From a phage: a stretch of DNA of 64,000 bases. The position numbers and the translations under genes were made by a program. This document shows, piece after piece, positions 23,247-43,773 of the stretch (the stretch's first letter is position 1; the number at the start of each line of letters is the position of its first letter). The notes below the pieces were generated by a model. The model saw nothing but the letters and a program-made list of their open reading frames with translations, did not search any database and had not been told where the DNA came from. The stretch lies in the sequence record PZ452596.1; one strand, given 5' to 3'.

Positions 23247-24215
23247 TTATTTCAGAAGAGTAACCTCAGCGATTTCTTCCCAACCGTTTTTGTCGGTCAT
23301 AATAAAGTCAGCAAGATAAAGAGCAGTACGCAGTGAAACATTGCGTAAACGATTAACATTGACTTTCATCCATGATAATGCTTTATAAGTTTCTTCATCA
23401 GAAAGACCGCGCTTTTGCATCATGTCAGTTGAAAGAATAACATCTTCAACCCTGACCATAATTTCTTCATTAGTGTGAACACCCAAATCCAAATAAACCG
23501 AGCGGGACACTAATGCTTGTAAATGTGGAGCAAGTTTAGTACCACGGTCTAATTCGCGGTCAATGTCAACGTTTGTGATAAAAACAATCGTTCCTTTAAA
23601 TTCAAACTCACGCTCAATGCCTTTTTCTTCTAAGTAAGAAGATGCAGTGCTCCAGCAGACTTTACGGGTCTCTCCAGTGTCCAGAGCAGCTTTCAGAAGA
23701 TTAAGAATGTCCATATCAGAGAAAACATCCACATCGTCAATCAAAAGGACAGAATTCTCTTCACGATTATTCCAAAGCTGCTCATAAAGACCAATACCAG
23801 AGATTTTACCATTAATACTTTTATATTCAATGTATCCAACATCATTTGCTTTATTTAAAGCTTTATCTAAAGAATATGTTTTACCTATACCTGCCGCACC
23901 AGAGATAATTAATGAACGAATGTTTCCGTTAATAATACCATTCGTCATCATTCCCATAACATTAAATCTTTTATTAATGCGGGTTTTCATATCTTCATAT
24001 GATTCTTTAACTTCTTCAACTTTTACACCATCATATGAAATGTCTGATTTGTAAACCCAAACACCGCGACGTTTACCGTCAATTTCAACAAAAACTTTAC
24101 CATCTCCTTGTGCATCTACCGGAGCATTATCCGGGAACCATTCGCCTAAGAGCTCAAAAGTTCCAGAGATTTCTTTACCGAAGTAGATACCCTTATTGAT
24201 AGTTACAGTTTTCAT
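23247..24215 (-). CDS. P-loop NTPase (AAA-like), 322 aa
   Basis: Walker A GAAGIGKT, Walker B LLIDDVD; track ORF trimmed to MKTVTINKG because the early promoter overlaps the longer ORF. Confidence 0.6.
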   Translation of the reverse strand: MKTVTINKGIYFGKEISGTFELLGEWFPDNAPVDAQGDGKVFVEIDGKRRGVWVYKSDISYDGVKVEEVKESYEDMKTRINKRFNVMGMMTNGIINGNIRSLIISGAAGIGKTYSLDKALNKANDVGYIEYKSINGKISGIGLYEQLWNNREENSVLLIDDVDVFSDMDILNLLKAALDTGETRKVCWSTASSYLEEKGIEREFEFKGTIVFITNVDIDRELDRGTKLAPHLQALVSRSVYLDLGVHTNEEIMVRVEDVILSTDMMQKRGLSDEETYKALSWMKVNVNRLRNVSLRTALYLADFIMTDKNGWEEIAEVTLLK

Positions 24216-24252
24216 TTTATTCTCCAAATCTGTATCAGTAGTTGATAGTTGT

Positions 24253-24282
24253 ATAGTACCATAAAGCTTTATGCTTGTAAAC
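24253..24282 (-). promoter_or_regulatory. T4-type early promoter with conserved leader module
   Basis: GTTTACA - 17 nt - TACTAT, then ACAACTATCAACTACTGA, RBS GGAGA, ATG. Confidence 0.5.
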
Positions 24283-24300
24283 AACTTTGTGAAAAATTTT

Positions 24301-24331
24301 TGAAATAAAAAAGGGAGCCCGAAGGCTCCCT
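24301..24331 (-). terminator. Rho-independent terminator after the nucleotidyltransferase gene
   Basis: AGGGAGCC-UUCG-GGCUCCCU hairpin followed by UUUUUAUUU. Confidence 0.55.
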
Positions 24332-34563: not shown

Positions 34564-35037
34564 TTATTTGAACGATTTAACGTACTGAATAGAACCTTTA
34601 CTATTCACAAAGGCAATTTTACCATTTTTGTTATACATGGTAGCAGTACGTTGATAGCCATAAGTTTGTTTACCAGATTGATAACCAACTAATGCAAAAT
34701 TATCTTCACCCATTTTATTCTGTTTAGCGCGAATACGTTCATGACCATGTGCCATAAGAACCTTAGCATCACCAGTTGCAATGGATCGACGAGTTTTTTC
34801 ATCTTCAACTGTATTAACAAAGTCGTCAAATGAATCAAATTTAGCATGAGATTTATTATATAGTTTTCCATCTACTGCATAATTATATCCTTGTACATCC
34901 ATCTCAACTTCTGTACCATCATCCAGTACAGCAGTGATTTTCTGTCCTTTTTTAAATTTCAAAAGATCAGTAAAAGATTCAGCAATAATTTGAGAACTAA
35001 TAGCTGCTTCAGTAATAAATTCTTGATATGTTTTCAT
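34564..35037 (-). CDS. Internal-protein-like protein with capsid-targeting N-terminus, 157 aa
   Basis: N-terminus MKTYQEFITEA matches the T4 internal-protein targeting sequence with ITE cleavage motif; adjacent to gene e as ipII/ipIII are in T4. Confidence 0.65.
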   Translation of the reverse strand: MKTYQEFITEAAISSQIIAESFTDLLKFKKGQKITAVLDDGTEVEMDVQGYNYAVDGKLYNKSHAKFDSFDDFVNTVEDEKTRRSIATGDAKVLMAHGHERIRAKQNKMGEDNFALVGYQSGKQTYGYQRTATMYNKNGKIAFVNSKGSIQYVKSFK

Positions 35038-38997: not shown

Positions 38998-39261
38998 TTA
39001 TTTCATATTATTGAAATATTCTTCAGCAATTTCATCATTATCATGATAAACTTTAGAAGACAGTTTAACATAACCTTCTGCTGCGAACATGTTAATCACA
39101 ACCTTTACAGTATACCACTGACCGTCTTCATTACCCATTACTGCATAGGTTTCAAACATCGGATGATCAGGACCGATAACTTTAATATCATTCACTGTAC
39201 GACCAAAATCTTCTGAAACACATTTCATAAAGAAGTTGAACAGTTCGCCGTAATTATCCAT
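38998..39261 (-). CDS. Hypothetical protein, 87 aa
   Basis: Track ORF 38998..39324 trimmed to MDNYGELFNF (RBS GGAGAA); the longer ORF would overlap the promoter. Confidence 0.5.
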   Translation of the reverse strand: MDNYGELFNFFMKCVSEDFGRTVNDIKVIGPDHPMFETYAVMGNEDGQWYTVKVVINMFAAEGYVKLSSKVYHDNDEIAEEYFNNMK

Positions 39262-39304
39262 TTCATTCTCCAAGTTGTTTTCTATATCAGTAGTTGATAT
39301 TGAT

Positions 39305-39333
39305 ATAGTACCATGGAAGGACAAGGATGTAAA
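39305..39333 (-). promoter_or_regulatory. T4-type early promoter with conserved leader module
   Basis: GTTTACA - 17 nt - TACTAT, then ATCAATATCAACTACTGA. Confidence 0.5.
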
Positions 39334-39452
39334 CCGTTTTGTGAAAAAATTTTTAAAAAGTTTTGGGGAATTCTAGGGCAGGGAGAGGAAATTAAAAGGT
39401 AGGATAATATATTATAAAGGGTATAAACTAAATGATGCCTAGAGAGGCCCGG

Positions 39453-39487
39453 AAAGGCCTAGATACCAAAAAGCCCCAACCTTTCGG
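39453..39487 (-). terminator. Rho-independent terminator, copy A of a 36-bp direct repeat
   Basis: GCCCUAGCC-GAAA-GGUUGGGGC hairpin followed by UUUUUGG; 35/36 identical to copy B. Confidence 0.55.
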
Positions 39488-39502
39488 CTAGGGCTAAGAA
39501 TG

Positions 39503-39964
39503 TTATTTGATTTGTTTAGCAGACCAAATGCGGTCTTTGATGATTTTTTGGAGGTCTTCAACATACTCTAGGTCATGAGCATGTGGATTATCTTTGAAAC
39601 TATGAGCTCGCGCAAGTTTCTGGCCTTCGGTCTTAATTATCAAAAGTTCTTTAAGAATTGCTTCATACCTAGAGATAATTCCTTTAGCAATATTTTTTTC
39701 TTGTGCTGCTTTAGGGTCAGCCTTAGGAGCAGGTTTACCAGAAGGTTTTTCGAAAGCCGCGCCAGTAGCAACCAGGCTTTTCCAGGCGGTGGTAACATAG
39801 TTACCCACAAAGCCTTCAGCTCTCATATCGTCGTAGAACTTGTACCGAGATTCGTCAGAAGCATCTTTATAAGAATATTTACCAGCTTTAATAGCAGCAG
39901 TTGCTACAGCGCGAACATCTGAAGCGGATGCTTCGGTCATTAAAAATTGAGCATAAGTTTTCAT
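39503..39964 (-). CDS. Internal-protein-like late gene with capsid-targeting-like N-terminus, 153 aa
   Basis: MKTYAQFLMTEA N-terminus; own TATAAATA late promoter; flanked by near-identical terminators. Confidence 0.6.
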   Translation of the reverse strand: MKTYAQFLMTEASASDVRAVATAAIKAGKYSYKDASDESRYKFYDDMRAEGFVGNYVTTAWKSLVATGAAFEKPSGKPAPKADPKAAQEKNIAKGIISRYEAILKELLIIKTEGQKLARAHSFKDNPHAHDLEYVEDLQKIIKDRIWSAKQIK

Positions 39965-39992
39965 TGTTATTTCCTGTGTTAATTAACTCATC

Positions 39993-40000
39993 TATTTATA
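39993..40000 (-). promoter_or_regulatory. Late promoter TATAAATA for the IP-like gene
   Basis: Minus strand TATAAATA about 29 nt upstream of ATG, directly abutting terminator copy B. Confidence 0.5.
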
Positions 40001-40033
40001 CCAAAAAGCCCCAACCTTTCGGCTGGGGCTAAG
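39998..40033 (-). terminator. Rho-independent terminator, copy B (end of the tRNA transcription unit)
   Basis: GCCCCAGCC-GAAA-GGUUGGGGC hairpin followed by UUUUUGG. Confidence 0.55.
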
Positions 40034-40078
40034 CCTTGCGGCAACCTTGTCGGGGTTCCACCTGCTAAGGCAAGTGTT

Positions 40079-40240
40079 TGTACGAAACGCCGGGATTCGA
40101 ACCCGGTTATTAAGCAGTTGACGCTACTCAATATTTTTAAAAGGCCATATCTCGACCATATCCGAACGTTCCGTCAAAAACGCTACTCGGCTTACGGCAA
40201 AGATATTTCCTCGAATCGATAATTCGGTGCGCCGTTTCTG
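40079..40240 (-). ncRNA. Probable stable structured RNA downstream of tRNA-Arg (T4 species 1/2 RNA position)
   Basis: tRNA-like T-arm CCGGG-UUCGAAU-CCCGG and terminal acceptor-like pairing; between tRNA-Arg and the terminator. Confidence 0.3.
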
Positions 40241-40346
40241 CTGTGATATAAGAGGACATTAACAAAACATAAAGATTTATTAATGCCAGTCCTTAAACAG
40301 GGAACATCAGTCCGACGACTTGCCGGTAGCGACCCGGCTTCTTGTC

Positions 40347-40422
40347 TGGTCGAGGCAGTAGGGATCGAACCTACGACCCAGGACTTAGAAGGTCCTTGCT
40401 CTTCCTTCTGAGCTATGCCTCG
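40347..40422 (-). tRNA. tRNA-Arg (anticodon UCU), CCA encoded
   Basis: Hand-folded cloverleaf: 7-bp acceptor, T-loop UUCGAUC, anticodon loop CUUCUAA. Confidence 0.8.
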
Positions 40423-40426
40423 GATT

Positions 40427-40501
40427 TGGCGGACGTGATAGGATTCGAACCTATAACCAATCGCTTAACAGGCGATCGCTCTGCCATTGAGCTACACATC
40501 C
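40427..40501 (-). tRNA. tRNA-Asn (anticodon GUU), CCA encoded
   Basis: Hand-folded cloverleaf; anticodon loop CUGUUAA; T-loop UUCGAAU. Confidence 0.75.
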
Positions 40502-40505
40502 AAAT

Positions 40506-40592
40506 TGGTGGGGAGTGATGGAGTCGAACCACCCGAGTCGCAATGACAATGGATTTACAGTCCACACCGCTACCTCTACGGGATAACTCCCC
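40506..40592 (-). tRNA. tRNA-Tyr (anticodon GUA), long variable arm, CCA encoded
   Basis: Hand-folded; anticodon loop CUGUAAA; 15-nt variable arm; T-loop UUCGACU. Confidence 0.75.
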
Positions 40593-40601
40593 TAATTAAT
40601 T

Positions 40602-40676
40602 TGGTGGCCCTGGGTGGAATTGAACCACCATCTGGCGATTATGAGTCGCTTGCTTGAACCTTCCAGCTACAGGGCC
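40602..40676 (-). tRNA. tRNA with CAU anticodon (Ile2/AUA-reading type as in T4, or elongator Met)
   Basis: Hand-folded; anticodon loop CUCAUAA; anticodon stem lacks initiator-type GGG/CCC pairs. Confidence 0.7.
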
Positions 40677-40677
40677 T

Positions 40678-40753
40678 TGGTGCTGATTGACGGAATCGAA
40701 CCGCCGACCTTCTCATTACAAGTGAGTTGCTCTACCTACTGAGCTAAATCAGC
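40678..40753 (-). tRNA. tRNA-Thr (anticodon UGU), CCA encoded
   Basis: Hand-folded; anticodon loop CUUGUAA. Confidence 0.8.
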
Positions 40754-40758
40754 AAAAC

Positions 40759-40848
40759 TGGCGGAGGCGATAGGATTTGAACCTATGAGTCGCCGGAGCG
40801 ACTGCCGGTTTTCAAGACCGGTGCATTAAACCACTCTGCCACGCCTCC
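40759..40848 (-). tRNA. tRNA-Ser (anticodon UGA), long variable arm, CCA encoded
   Basis: Hand-folded; anticodon loop CUUGAAA; 18-nt variable arm. Confidence 0.8.
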
Positions 40849-40850
40849 AG

Positions 40851-40924
40851 TCTCCATACAAGGATTTGAACCTTGGACCTCCTGATCCCAAATCAGGCGC
40901 TCTACCAAACTGAGCTACACGGAG
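40851..40924 (-). tRNA. tRNA-Pro (anticodon UGG), CCA not encoded
   Basis: Hand-folded; anticodon loop UUUGGGA. Confidence 0.75.
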
Positions 40925-40934
40925 TAAATTAAAT

Positions 40935-41008
<74 letters not shown>

Positions 41009-41013
41009 AAATT

Positions 41014-41100
41014 TGGTGCGAGAAGTGGGACTCGAACCCACAAGGAAATCATTCCGCAGCATTTTAAGTGCTGTGCCTTTACCAATTTGACCATTCTCGC
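41014..41100 (-). tRNA. tRNA-Leu (anticodon UAA), long variable arm, CCA encoded
   Basis: Hand-folded; anticodon loop CUUAAAA. Confidence 0.8.
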
Positions 41101-41101
41101 G

Positions 41102-41174
41102 CTGGGAATAAAGGACTCGAACCTTTGCATCTAGCAGTCAAAGTGCTATGCCTTACCAACTTGGCTAATTCCCA
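41102..41174 (-). tRNA. tRNA-Gln (anticodon UUG), CCA not encoded
   Basis: Hand-folded; anticodon loop CUUUGAC. Confidence 0.75.
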
Positions 41175-41260
41175 ATTATTAACAAAGGCTCTCTAACAAG
41201 AACCCTTGATGATAGAGGGTATTAATCAGTGCGGTATGAGTTAATAATAACAAATATTTC

Positions 41261-41776
41261 TTAAAGCAAATCAACCATTTTAACAGTCGGCAAAACAATT
41301 TCTTCTTCGATATAAGCAAATTCTACATGTTCAACTACACGCAAGAAATCATATTCATAGTATTCAGAAGCATGACCAAGAATATCAATGAGGCCTTCAG
41401 ATATCTTATTACCATTCACAAAGAATAAATCAAATACACGTTCTTCATCTTCTTCGGATTTATTACCAAGGTCAACTTCTATATCAAAGACCTTTTTAAT
41501 GAATTCTGGATAAAGTTGGTCTGAGAACAGTCCTTCAACCAAATATTCATATATAAAAAGCTCTTGCTCGCTGAACAACCCATTACCACAATAACGGTCA
41601 GCTTTAGTACTAGAATGACGACTCTTAAACTTCTTCAAAAGATATTTAAATTGTTGGAGCTCATGCTCTTCTACGCCAAACAGTGTTTTGGTTTTATAGT
41701 TATCACCATCATTTTCCCAGGTAGTGACATCAATTACGTAACCCTTAGGAATTGTGCTGCCTAAACGAATATACAT
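41261..41776 (-). CDS. Hypothetical acidic protein, 171 aa
   Basis: Track ORF; ATG overlaps the end of the upstream ORF in another frame. Confidence 0.5.
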   Translation of the reverse strand: MYIRLGSTIPKGYVIDVTTWENDGDNYKTKTLFGVEEHELQQFKYLLKKFKSRHSSTKADRYCGNGLFSEQELFIYEYLVEGLFSDQLYPEFIKKVFDIEVDLGNKSEEDEERVFDLFFVNGNKISEGLIDILGHASEYYEYDFLRVVEHVEFAYIEEEIVLPTVKMVDLL

Positions 41777-42636: not shown

Positions 42637-42664
42637 TTTATTCTCCTCAGTAGTTGATAGGGTA

Positions 42665-42693
42665 ATAGTATCACTACTAAAACCCTATGTAAA
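42665..42693 (-). promoter_or_regulatory. T4-type early promoter with conserved leader module
   Basis: GTTTACA - 17 nt - TACTAT, then CCCTATCAACTACTGAGGAGAATAAAATG. Confidence 0.5.
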
Positions 42694-42713
42694 CAACTTT
42701 GTGAAATTGTTTA

Positions 42714-43004
42714 TTACAAAAGATTTTTAGCAATAATCTTGAGATGTGCTGCAGAAATGTGTTTAGCTTTAAACAACGCAGTTTCTTCAGCAGGAGAGAT
42801 AACGATTGTAGCACCATCCTTTTTAGCAGACCACCCATCACCTAAGTAAACAGTACCTTTGATTTCTTCGCCATCAACCAGACTAATCATTGGTTTACCT
42901 TCTCGTCCTTTATTTGCTTTAATAACTTCAGAAGTAAGAGTAGCTTCGGTAATGGTAGAAACCGGGGTAGTTGTAGTAGAAGTAAATTCTTTAAATGTTT
43001 TCAT
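42714..43004 (-). CDS. Internal protein I-like protein with capsid-targeting N-terminus, 96 aa
   Basis: MKTFKEF...STITEA N-terminus; position between the tRNA region and 57B as for T4 ipI. Confidence 0.6.
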   Translation of the reverse strand: MKTFKEFTSTTTTPVSTITEATLTSEVIKANKGREGKPMISLVDGEEIKGTVYLGDGWSAKKDGATIVISPAEETALFKAKHISAAHLKIIAKNLL

Positions 43005-43034
43005 TTTATTTTCCTAATTAATTTTGATGAGGTA

Positions 43035-43063
43035 ATAGTATCACTACCTCATCAACGTGTAAA
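43035..43063 (-). promoter_or_regulatory. T4-type early promoter upstream of the ipI-like gene
   Basis: GTTTACA - 17 nt - TACTAT; flanked by inverted repeat TTGATGAGGTA/TACCTCATCAA. Confidence 0.5.
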
Positions 43064-43076
43064 CAACTTTGTGAAA

Positions 43077-43773
<697 letters not shown>

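Follow-up and report, generated by a model that had tools for sequence, protein, structure and literature searches.

A candidate internal-protein gene between terminator hairpins at the variable e.8/rnaC site of phage RB27 and related T4-like phages

The 64,000-nucleotide stretch of phage DNA analysed in this study (sequence record PZ452596.1, hereafter the window) contains a small open reading frame (ORF) enclosed by two nearly identical hairpins. Over the 1.5 kb surrounding this locus the window matches Enterobacteria phage RB27 (KM607000) at 100% identity, a window position being equal to the record position minus 27286. The ORF, located at 39503-39964 on the minus strand, starts with MKTYAQFLMTEA and encodes 153 amino acids; it corresponds to RB27_136, annotated as a 'hypothetical protein', and is referred to below as gene A. 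Its neighbours are also encoded on the minus strand, with the tRNA-rnaD-rnaC cluster on one side and the early genes e.8 to e.2 on the other. An earlier note on the window, made from the sequence and its ORFs, had proposed that gene A resembles the internal proteins of T4 and forms a late cassette insulated by terminator repeats, and the present analysis followed up this proposal.

The bracketing element is a direct repeat of 36 nt, the two copies of which (39463-39498 and 39998-40033) are identical at 35 of 36 positions. This identity and the position of the second copy agree with the earlier note, which had set the first copy at 39453-39487, about 10 nt too low. A search of the 64-kb window at up to three mismatches returned no further copies, and 100 shuffled sequences yielded 0 matches. 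On the minus strand, each copy reads AGCCC(C/U)AGCC-GAAA-GGUUGGGGCU followed by UUUUU, giving a 10-bp stem closed by a GAAA loop, and the sole mismatch between the copies changes a G-C pair into G-U. Folding energies were -20.5 kcal/mol for the downstream copy and -21.9 kcal/mol for the upstream copy (z = -2.5 and -3.5, respectively), and the two hairpins ranked as the top two terminator-like sites across 34-44 kb, in keeping with the earlier description of both as terminator hairpins with a U-run. Judging by stem-loop and U-run, the downstream copy (hairpin at 39472-39495) would act as the intrinsic terminator of gene A, and the upstream copy (hairpin at 40007-40030) as the terminator of the tRNA-rnaD-rnaC unit.

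Gene A has a late-promoter motif of its own, as had been noticed before: the T4-type TATAAATA lies at 39993-40000 on the minus strand, with its first three bases within the upstream repeat and its end 29 nt before the ATG. A Shine-Dalgarno motif, AGGAA (39971-39975, minus strand), can be read from the sequence 6 nt before the start codon. Late promoter, Shine-Dalgarno motif, ORF and one hairpin copy together constitute a unit of 535 bp. The TATAAATA motif is kept in every sampled gene-A locus of Tequatrovirus and Dhakavirus, its place being taken by AATAAATA in Mosigvirus. At the downstream repeat, the right-hand junction (...GCTAAG/AATG) belongs to the gene-A cassette and the left-hand one (GGTATCTAGG) to a T4-type flank.

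To place this arrangement among related phages, 21 loci were read and their hairpins, TATAAATA boxes and ORFs mapped. In T4, a single hairpin copy (L004 6326-6361) lies just past rnaC and is followed, after about 130 nt, by the e.8 early promoter, with no ORF between them. Since the T4 order is left flank, one repeat and right flank, and both flanks match RB27, the difference between the two phages amounts to the 535-bp unit bounded exactly by the repeat; the upstream copy of RB27 is orthologous to the single copy of T4.

At least five states of the site were observed: empty, A, B, B+A, and A with another ORF. T2, T4 and T6 are empty, with one hairpin and no gene, while gene A lies between two hairpins in RB27, G8, fPS-2, teqhad, RB68, Sf21, KIT03, RB33 and CAM-21. 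HY03 and ESh24 carry an unrelated gene of 187 amino acids (gene B), starting with MKTYAEFLTE↓A (the arrow marks the cleavage point expected for such leaders), and fPS-65, PinkRuby, F25 and an IMG/VR contig hold B and A with a third hairpin copy between the genes. Gene A is accompanied by a 184-aa ORF in WG01 (Dhakavirus) and GRNsp7, within a variant hairpin bracket (GGCCCTTCC-GAAA-GGTTGGGCC), and is flanked on either side by AGCCCCTTCC hairpins in p000y (Mosigvirus); in BYEP02, which has gene A, 81 bp comprising the rnaC 3' end and the hairpin are duplicated in tandem, resulting in three hairpins. In a divergent T4-like contig from a metagenome, the corresponding position is taken by a homologue of 46% identity; CATAAATA lies upstream of it, and TTTCGGG(G)TATCTA flanks it on either side. 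The earlier note, which suggested comparing the locus over T-even phages, had taken ordinary conserved terminators at an invariable locus as counting against its proposal; the opposite was seen, with T2, T4 and T6 empty at one copy and others holding other or tandem cargo.

Gene A was found in 471 phage records, one copy each, belonging to Tequatrovirus, Mosigvirus and Dhakavirus, and gene B in 165. The carriers of gene A include AndreasVesalius and TadeuszReichstein, two Tequatrovirus phages of the BASEL collection. Among 31 evenly spaced records containing both flanks, 7 were empty and 24 filled, these frequencies being sample-based estimates and no exact census. An IMG/VR scan for the hairpin gave three contigs only. 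Two features of individual loci deserve mention. The BYEP02 duplication (L015 2001-2108) resembles the footprint of unequal crossing-over at the hairpin element. The 184-aa ORF (MKLLKYLSWVLLVPLDF..., phrog_2143, unknown function, hydrophobic N-terminus) lies downstream of gene A within the same hairpin bracket in one Dhakavirus (WG01 ORF138, L011 1903-2457) and one Tequatrovirus (GRNsp7, L012 1902-2456).

Junctions between site states fall in the hairpin or at its edge, and the alleles of the gene differ far more than the flanks do. Compared with RB27, the flanks of Tequatrovirus loci are 93-100% identical and the body of gene A 82-99%, and the segment comprising the leader and the 5' untranslated region (UTR) occurs as two haplotypes that are partly alignable (57-63%). 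Synonymous divergence (dS) between gene-A alleles within one genus reaches approximately 1.0, equal to the between-genus level, and in GRNsp7 an allele of RB27 type (99%) adjoins a left context of Dhakavirus type. Judging by these divergences, the alleles are older than their surroundings or have been exchanged independently of them. Co-evolution of the two hairpins within a genome seemed to hold for the first 8 loci, but 8 further ones led to its rejection, as RB68, KIT03, Sf21 and RB33 mix arm variants; it holds only between genera.

The right conserved flank is formed by rnaC (species 1 RNA; 40081-40219, minus strand), which is 94-100% identical across Tequatrovirus. On the left lies the e.8 early promoter, TTTACA-17-TACTAT (39305-39333, minus strand), the counterpart of which in fPS-2 has been annotated as an early promoter and which makes up, with the hairpin, an element of PeSL type; it is followed by e.8 itself (38998-39261, minus strand, RB27 annotation), with which the early genes downstream of the cassette begin. 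In an Rfam scan, the interval 39300-41300 yielded tRNAs only. The early-promoter region (39259-39357) resembles another early-promoter/5'-UTR region 15 kb away (24213-24305), with 73% identity over 99 nt; the likeness takes in AAATTTTTCACAAA..GTTTACA..TACTATA..ATCAACTACTGATACAG..GGAGAATAAAATG and corresponds to an extended conserved early-promoter cassette of T-even phages. Beyond rnaC, at 40347-41174, RB27 has 10 tRNA genes and no segB, whereas T4 has 8 tRNAs with segB inserted after tRNA-Arg; tRNA-Asn, Tyr and Met of RB27 stand where T4 has segB and tRNA-Ile.

PeSL elements are cassettes of a stem-loop plus an early promoter that bracket accessory ORFs and mediate insertions and deletions (indels) (Arbiol et al. 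2010, PMC2839356; Comeau et al. 2014, PMC4122927), the variant with a middle promoter being known as PmSL (PMC2839356, PMC4122927). Homology patches of less than 50 bp suffice for recombination in T4-type phages, and mini-circles have been described (PMC2839356). The gene-A element shares with PeSL a terminator stem-loop joined to a promoter, copies flanking a small accessory ORF, a location in a hyperplastic region, indels between close relatives with junctions in the repeated element, and the transcriptional insulation of the ORF; the empty site of T4 likewise consists of a stem-loop and an early promoter. It differs in that the upstream stem-loop is fused to the late TATAAATA and not to a sigma70-type early or Mot-box middle promoter, and in that the hairpin itself (36 nt), not the promoter, is what is repeated. 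PeSL calls for a strong sigma70-like early promoter immediately past the stem-loop; the upstream copy has the late box in this place, and the e.8 early promoter (39333-39305) lies about 130 nt past the downstream hairpin. The term 'late promoter' is absent from PMC2839356. The gene-A element thus works like PeSL yet falls outside its published definition. The earlier suggestion of a movable cassette is borne out as regards the hairpin-bounded unit and the variable site; the idea is not new, being essentially the published PeSL model (PMC2839356, PMC4122927).

Gene B, the alternative cargo, encodes 187 amino acids (MKTYAEFLTE↓AAKLPSE..., isoelectric point (pI) 9.4) and lies at L010 1491-2054 in HY03. 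It occupies the e.8/rnaC site alone or in tandem with gene A, being present also in L008, L009, L014 and L023, and is 'hypothetical' in the annotations examined. It is preceded by AATAAATA, not TATAAATA, has a different downstream hairpin of its own and meets the common flank at GGGCTTTTTGGTATCTAGG. Homology between the two genes was considered and rejected, as BLASTP aligns the 12-residue leader only and hhalign gives a probability of 23%. Both match phrog_2280 ('unknown function') equally well (E 5e-52 for gene A, where it is the only profile match, and 3e-53 for gene B); this family appears to lump two cargoes through their common leader.

The first 11 codons of gene A (39932-39964, minus strand) encode MKTYAQFLMTE, a leader of capsid-targeting type for which a gp21 cut is predicted after Glu11 (↓ASASDV...). 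Amber-suppression work on IPIII assigned head targeting to residues 4 and 7 and processing to residues 8 and 10, and gp21 cleaves after L/I-X-E (PMC9026906). Gene A has both Tyr4 and Phe7, and every full-length homologue, even at 28-46% identity, has an aromatic residue at position 4 (Y/F) together with Phe7, in line with the leader type assigned to the ORF in the earlier note. The distant homologues (28-46%) and two chimeras keep M-x-x-[YF]-x-[EQ]-F and (L/I)-x-E, and in most relatives the leader ends in a canonical L-N-E↓A (twice in some) or L-T-E↓Q. This conservation in distant relatives is the best available argument that the leader may be functional. A start of the form MK[TS][YF]x(2,3)F occurs in 3 of the 235 ATG-initiated ORFs of at least 40 amino acids in the window, namely gene A, Ip4 and ipI.

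These two further leader-bearing genes, also pointed out before, are real internal-protein genes. Ip4 (34564-35037, minus strand) starts with MKTYQEFITE↓A and belongs to phrog_3155 'internal virion protein' (DUF7412), and ipI (42714-43004, minus strand) matches PF11634 and an 'internal virion protein' PHROG. The latter is bracketed by a 59-nt direct repeat (42654-42712 and 43024-43082; 81% identical, 370 bp apart), each copy of which contains a sigma70-type early promoter, GTTTACA-17-TACTAT, so that a known internal-protein gene stands within a PeSL-like bracket; Ip4 has no such bracket.

The product of gene A has a mass of 17 kDa and a pI of 9.3, comparable with the T4 internal proteins IPI-III (pI 8.9-9.5, similar size), and is rich in Lys, with a Pro/Lys linker (KPSGKPAPKADPKAAQEK). 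The ratio of non-synonymous to synonymous substitution rates (dN/dS) is 0.08-0.22, indicating purifying selection on a real, constrained gene. The AF2 model, built on a six-sequence alignment and of moderate confidence (predicted local distance difference test, pLDDT, 73), is all-helical, with three helices in the N-terminal part, then the Pro/Lys linker and finally a long hairpin of helices. Exhaustive profile searching with HMMER over 1.84 billion representatives yielded 11 matches, all apparently from the same phage family or fragments. In the metagenomic homologues P0024 and P0026 the leader and N-terminal module (AGKYSY..ESRFQFARDM..GF) are kept while the C-terminal halves are unrelated; these chimeras point to domain shuffling inside the family. 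Shorter copies (108-112 aa) with altered, frameshift-like C-terminal ends occur in fPS-65 (g136c, L008 2317-2655), SfPhi01 (P0008) and P0022, and suggest gene decay in some carriers.

Gene A has in common with the T4 internal proteins (IPs) IPI-III (work of the Black laboratory, reviewed in PMC9026906) and with Ip4-Ip10 the MKT(Y/F)..F leader ending in Glu↓Ala, a small basic product, a late-promoter motif, dispensability, variable presence among phages and families that share the leader only; two genuine ip genes lie within the same 10 kb. It differs in its position at a third site, e.8/rnaC, instead of the ipI or ipII-ipIII loci, in its absence from T2, T4 and T6, which served for the biochemical work on IPs, and, in RB27, in a leader of 11 residues with Met at P3; packaging of its product is, furthermore, a prediction. 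None of the annotations examined calls a member of the gene A family Ip, including the RB27, WG01 and T6 records, which use the names Ip4-Ip9. Variable, leader-bearing ip genes have been known since Repoila et al. 1994 (as cited in PMC12373910), and the family may coincide with one of the numbered Ip of that work. Ip families are alike in the leader only (PMC12373910), as are genes A and B.

The earlier note had regarded IPI* as the one internal protein with a known target, and this no longer holds: Ip1, Ip2 and Ip3 each inhibit a different GmrSD enzyme (PMC12373910), and Bas37_0260 inhibits McrBC (HIDEN-SEQ preprint, bioRxiv 10.1101/2025.11.20.689424). Silas et al. tested ip4-10 and obtained no new pairs, and several active GmrSD variants are still without a known inhibitor. 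Bas37_0260 provides the most recent precedent for gene A, as a leader-bearing ORF that had gone unannotated in a Tequatrovirus other than T4 and proved to be a type IV restriction inhibitor; it differs in lying at the ipI locus and in having its function shown by knockout, and its likeness to RB27_136 is one of description. Variable ip genes, PeSL shuffling and IPs as type IV restriction inhibitors are therefore already published, and what gene A adds is an unnamed example and the late promoter.

With somewhat better than even confidence, we regard RB27_136 as the late-expressed gene of a head-packaged internal protein, carried on a self-contained 535-bp unit that is lodged in the stem-loop of the element formed by rnaC terminator and e.8 early promoter. 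In such a scheme, the upstream hairpin would end read-through from the tRNA operon, so that gene A would be transcribed only from TATAAATA, a promoter of gp55 type, and hence late, and the downstream hairpin would shield the early genes e.8-e.2 from late transcripts. The 11-residue leader would dock the protein on the scaffolding core of the prohead and gp21 would cut after Glu11, leaving a mature, basic, helical protein of about 142 amino acids to be packed with the DNA and injected. Packaging, processing and injection are plausible by extension from T4 biology, as is an anti-defence role: the protein would most probably block a nuclease-type host defence, a type IV restriction enzyme being the first guess by analogy with Ip1, Ip2, Ip3 and Bas37_0260. 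Homologous recombination between copies of the hairpin would account for gain, loss and exchange of the unit, following the excision/integration model of PeSL and possibly passing through a 535-bp circle holding one hairpin.

Several results weigh against this interpretation. The TATAAATA octamer is not enriched in the AT-rich window (11 occurrences against 11.4 expected), and its weight therefore derives from its position and conservation. The leader of RB27 ends in L-M-T-E↓A, one residue longer than that of IPIII and with Met in place of Leu/Ile at P3. Pfam and NCBIfam contain no match for RB27_136, the IPI (PF11634) and Ip4 (DUF7412) profiles included, and a Foldseek search of the model against PDB and BFVD retrieved the family itself only, all other hits having E > 0.6; the family is narrow and gives no lead to an activity from sequence or fold. 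Regarding recombination, arm variants (CGACC, CAGCC, TAGCC) and loops (GAAA/AAAA) are freely reassorted among the hairpins of Tequatrovirus, and the joint of cassette B, which has a different hairpin of its own, with the left flank comprises only some 10-19 nt (GGGCTTTTT GGTATCTAGG), which implies that some events were not a clean exchange within the 36-nt repeat. Finally, no virion proteomics and no N-terminal or transcript mapping for any family member was found in the searchable literature: the fPS-2/fPS-65 paper reports no virion mass spectrometry, and the SH7 study found just 13 structural proteins.

The product might be packaged and yet serve the head itself, through neutralisation of DNA charge or prohead assembly as for IPIII, instead of inhibiting a defence. 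Its basic, Lys-rich composition with the Pro/Lys linker would suit such a task, and head assembly is slower in IPIII mutants, IP lysines contacting the DNA (PMC9026906, PMC3012670). We consider this rather unlikely, given that T2, T4 and T6 build their heads without gene A, that its presence/absence pattern, shortened copies and highly diverged alleles look like those of an accessory gene in an arms race, and that all IPs with an assigned target so far are anti-restriction proteins.

The leader could also be a relic, acquired because the 5' ends of ip-type genes recombine, on a late cytoplasmic protein that is not packaged. The separate mosaicism of the leader/UTR segment, with its two haplotypes that are only 57-63% alignable, would fit this, as would the departure of the RB27 P3 residue from L/I-X-E and the lack of direct virion evidence. 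A relic is, however, not expected to retain its targeting residues and Glu-terminated motif at 28-46% identity and in chimeras, which speaks for selection on the leader, and the late promoter suits the timing of prohead-core formation; we judge this alternative quite improbable.

With regard to the site, the two hairpins might simply be ordinary terminators of common origin, separated by one ancestral deletion or insertion in the T2/T4/T6 lineage and with no ongoing cassette traffic. A deletion between 36-nt direct repeats would produce exactly the T4 state, and a hairpin is required in any case to end the tRNA operon. A single event is hard to reconcile with at least five site states, tandem arrangements, unrelated cargo with the same leader at the same site, the 99%-identical GRNsp7 allele in a different left context, the reassorted hairpin arms and the 81-bp duplication of BYEP02, and we give it little credence. 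A role of the nearby homing endonuclease SegB in driving the variability by co-conversion of flanks, suggested by the location of segB about 0.5 kb away in T4, T6, G8, fPS-2, RB33 and GRNsp7 and by the fact that homing drags along flanking markers, is very improbable, as its presence does not track the state of the site (T4 and T6 are segB+ and empty; G8, fPS-2 and RB33 segB+ with A; RB27 segB- with A) and the indels end at the hairpin instead of at a SegB cleavage site in the tRNA genes.

Extending the preferred reading, in which gene A encodes a packaged internal protein on a hairpin-bounded unit, the e.8/rnaC hairpin could be a third, unrecognised internal-protein locus. Genes A and B would then be injected inhibitors of defences outside the range of Ip1-3 and Bas37_0260, circulating among Tequatrovirus, Mosigvirus and Dhakavirus as hairpin-bounded cassettes with a late promoter, a 'late' counterpart of PeSL. 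This wider proposal is put forward tentatively, as one that may well turn out otherwise.

Internal proteins are, to our knowledge, unique among phage anti-defence factors in entering the host preformed, together with the DNA, and each IP whose target has been assigned to date blocks a type IV restriction enzyme. Genes A and B represent two widespread leader-bearing families. Their absence from T2, T4 and T6 and the label 'hypothetical' given by annotators seem to be why they have escaped notice. As T2, T4 and T6 are natural nulls, both genes are directly testable. The locus is also a clean, naturally occurring instance of cassettes being exchanged at a terminator that has a late promoter, and its empty state and several filled ones can all be studied.

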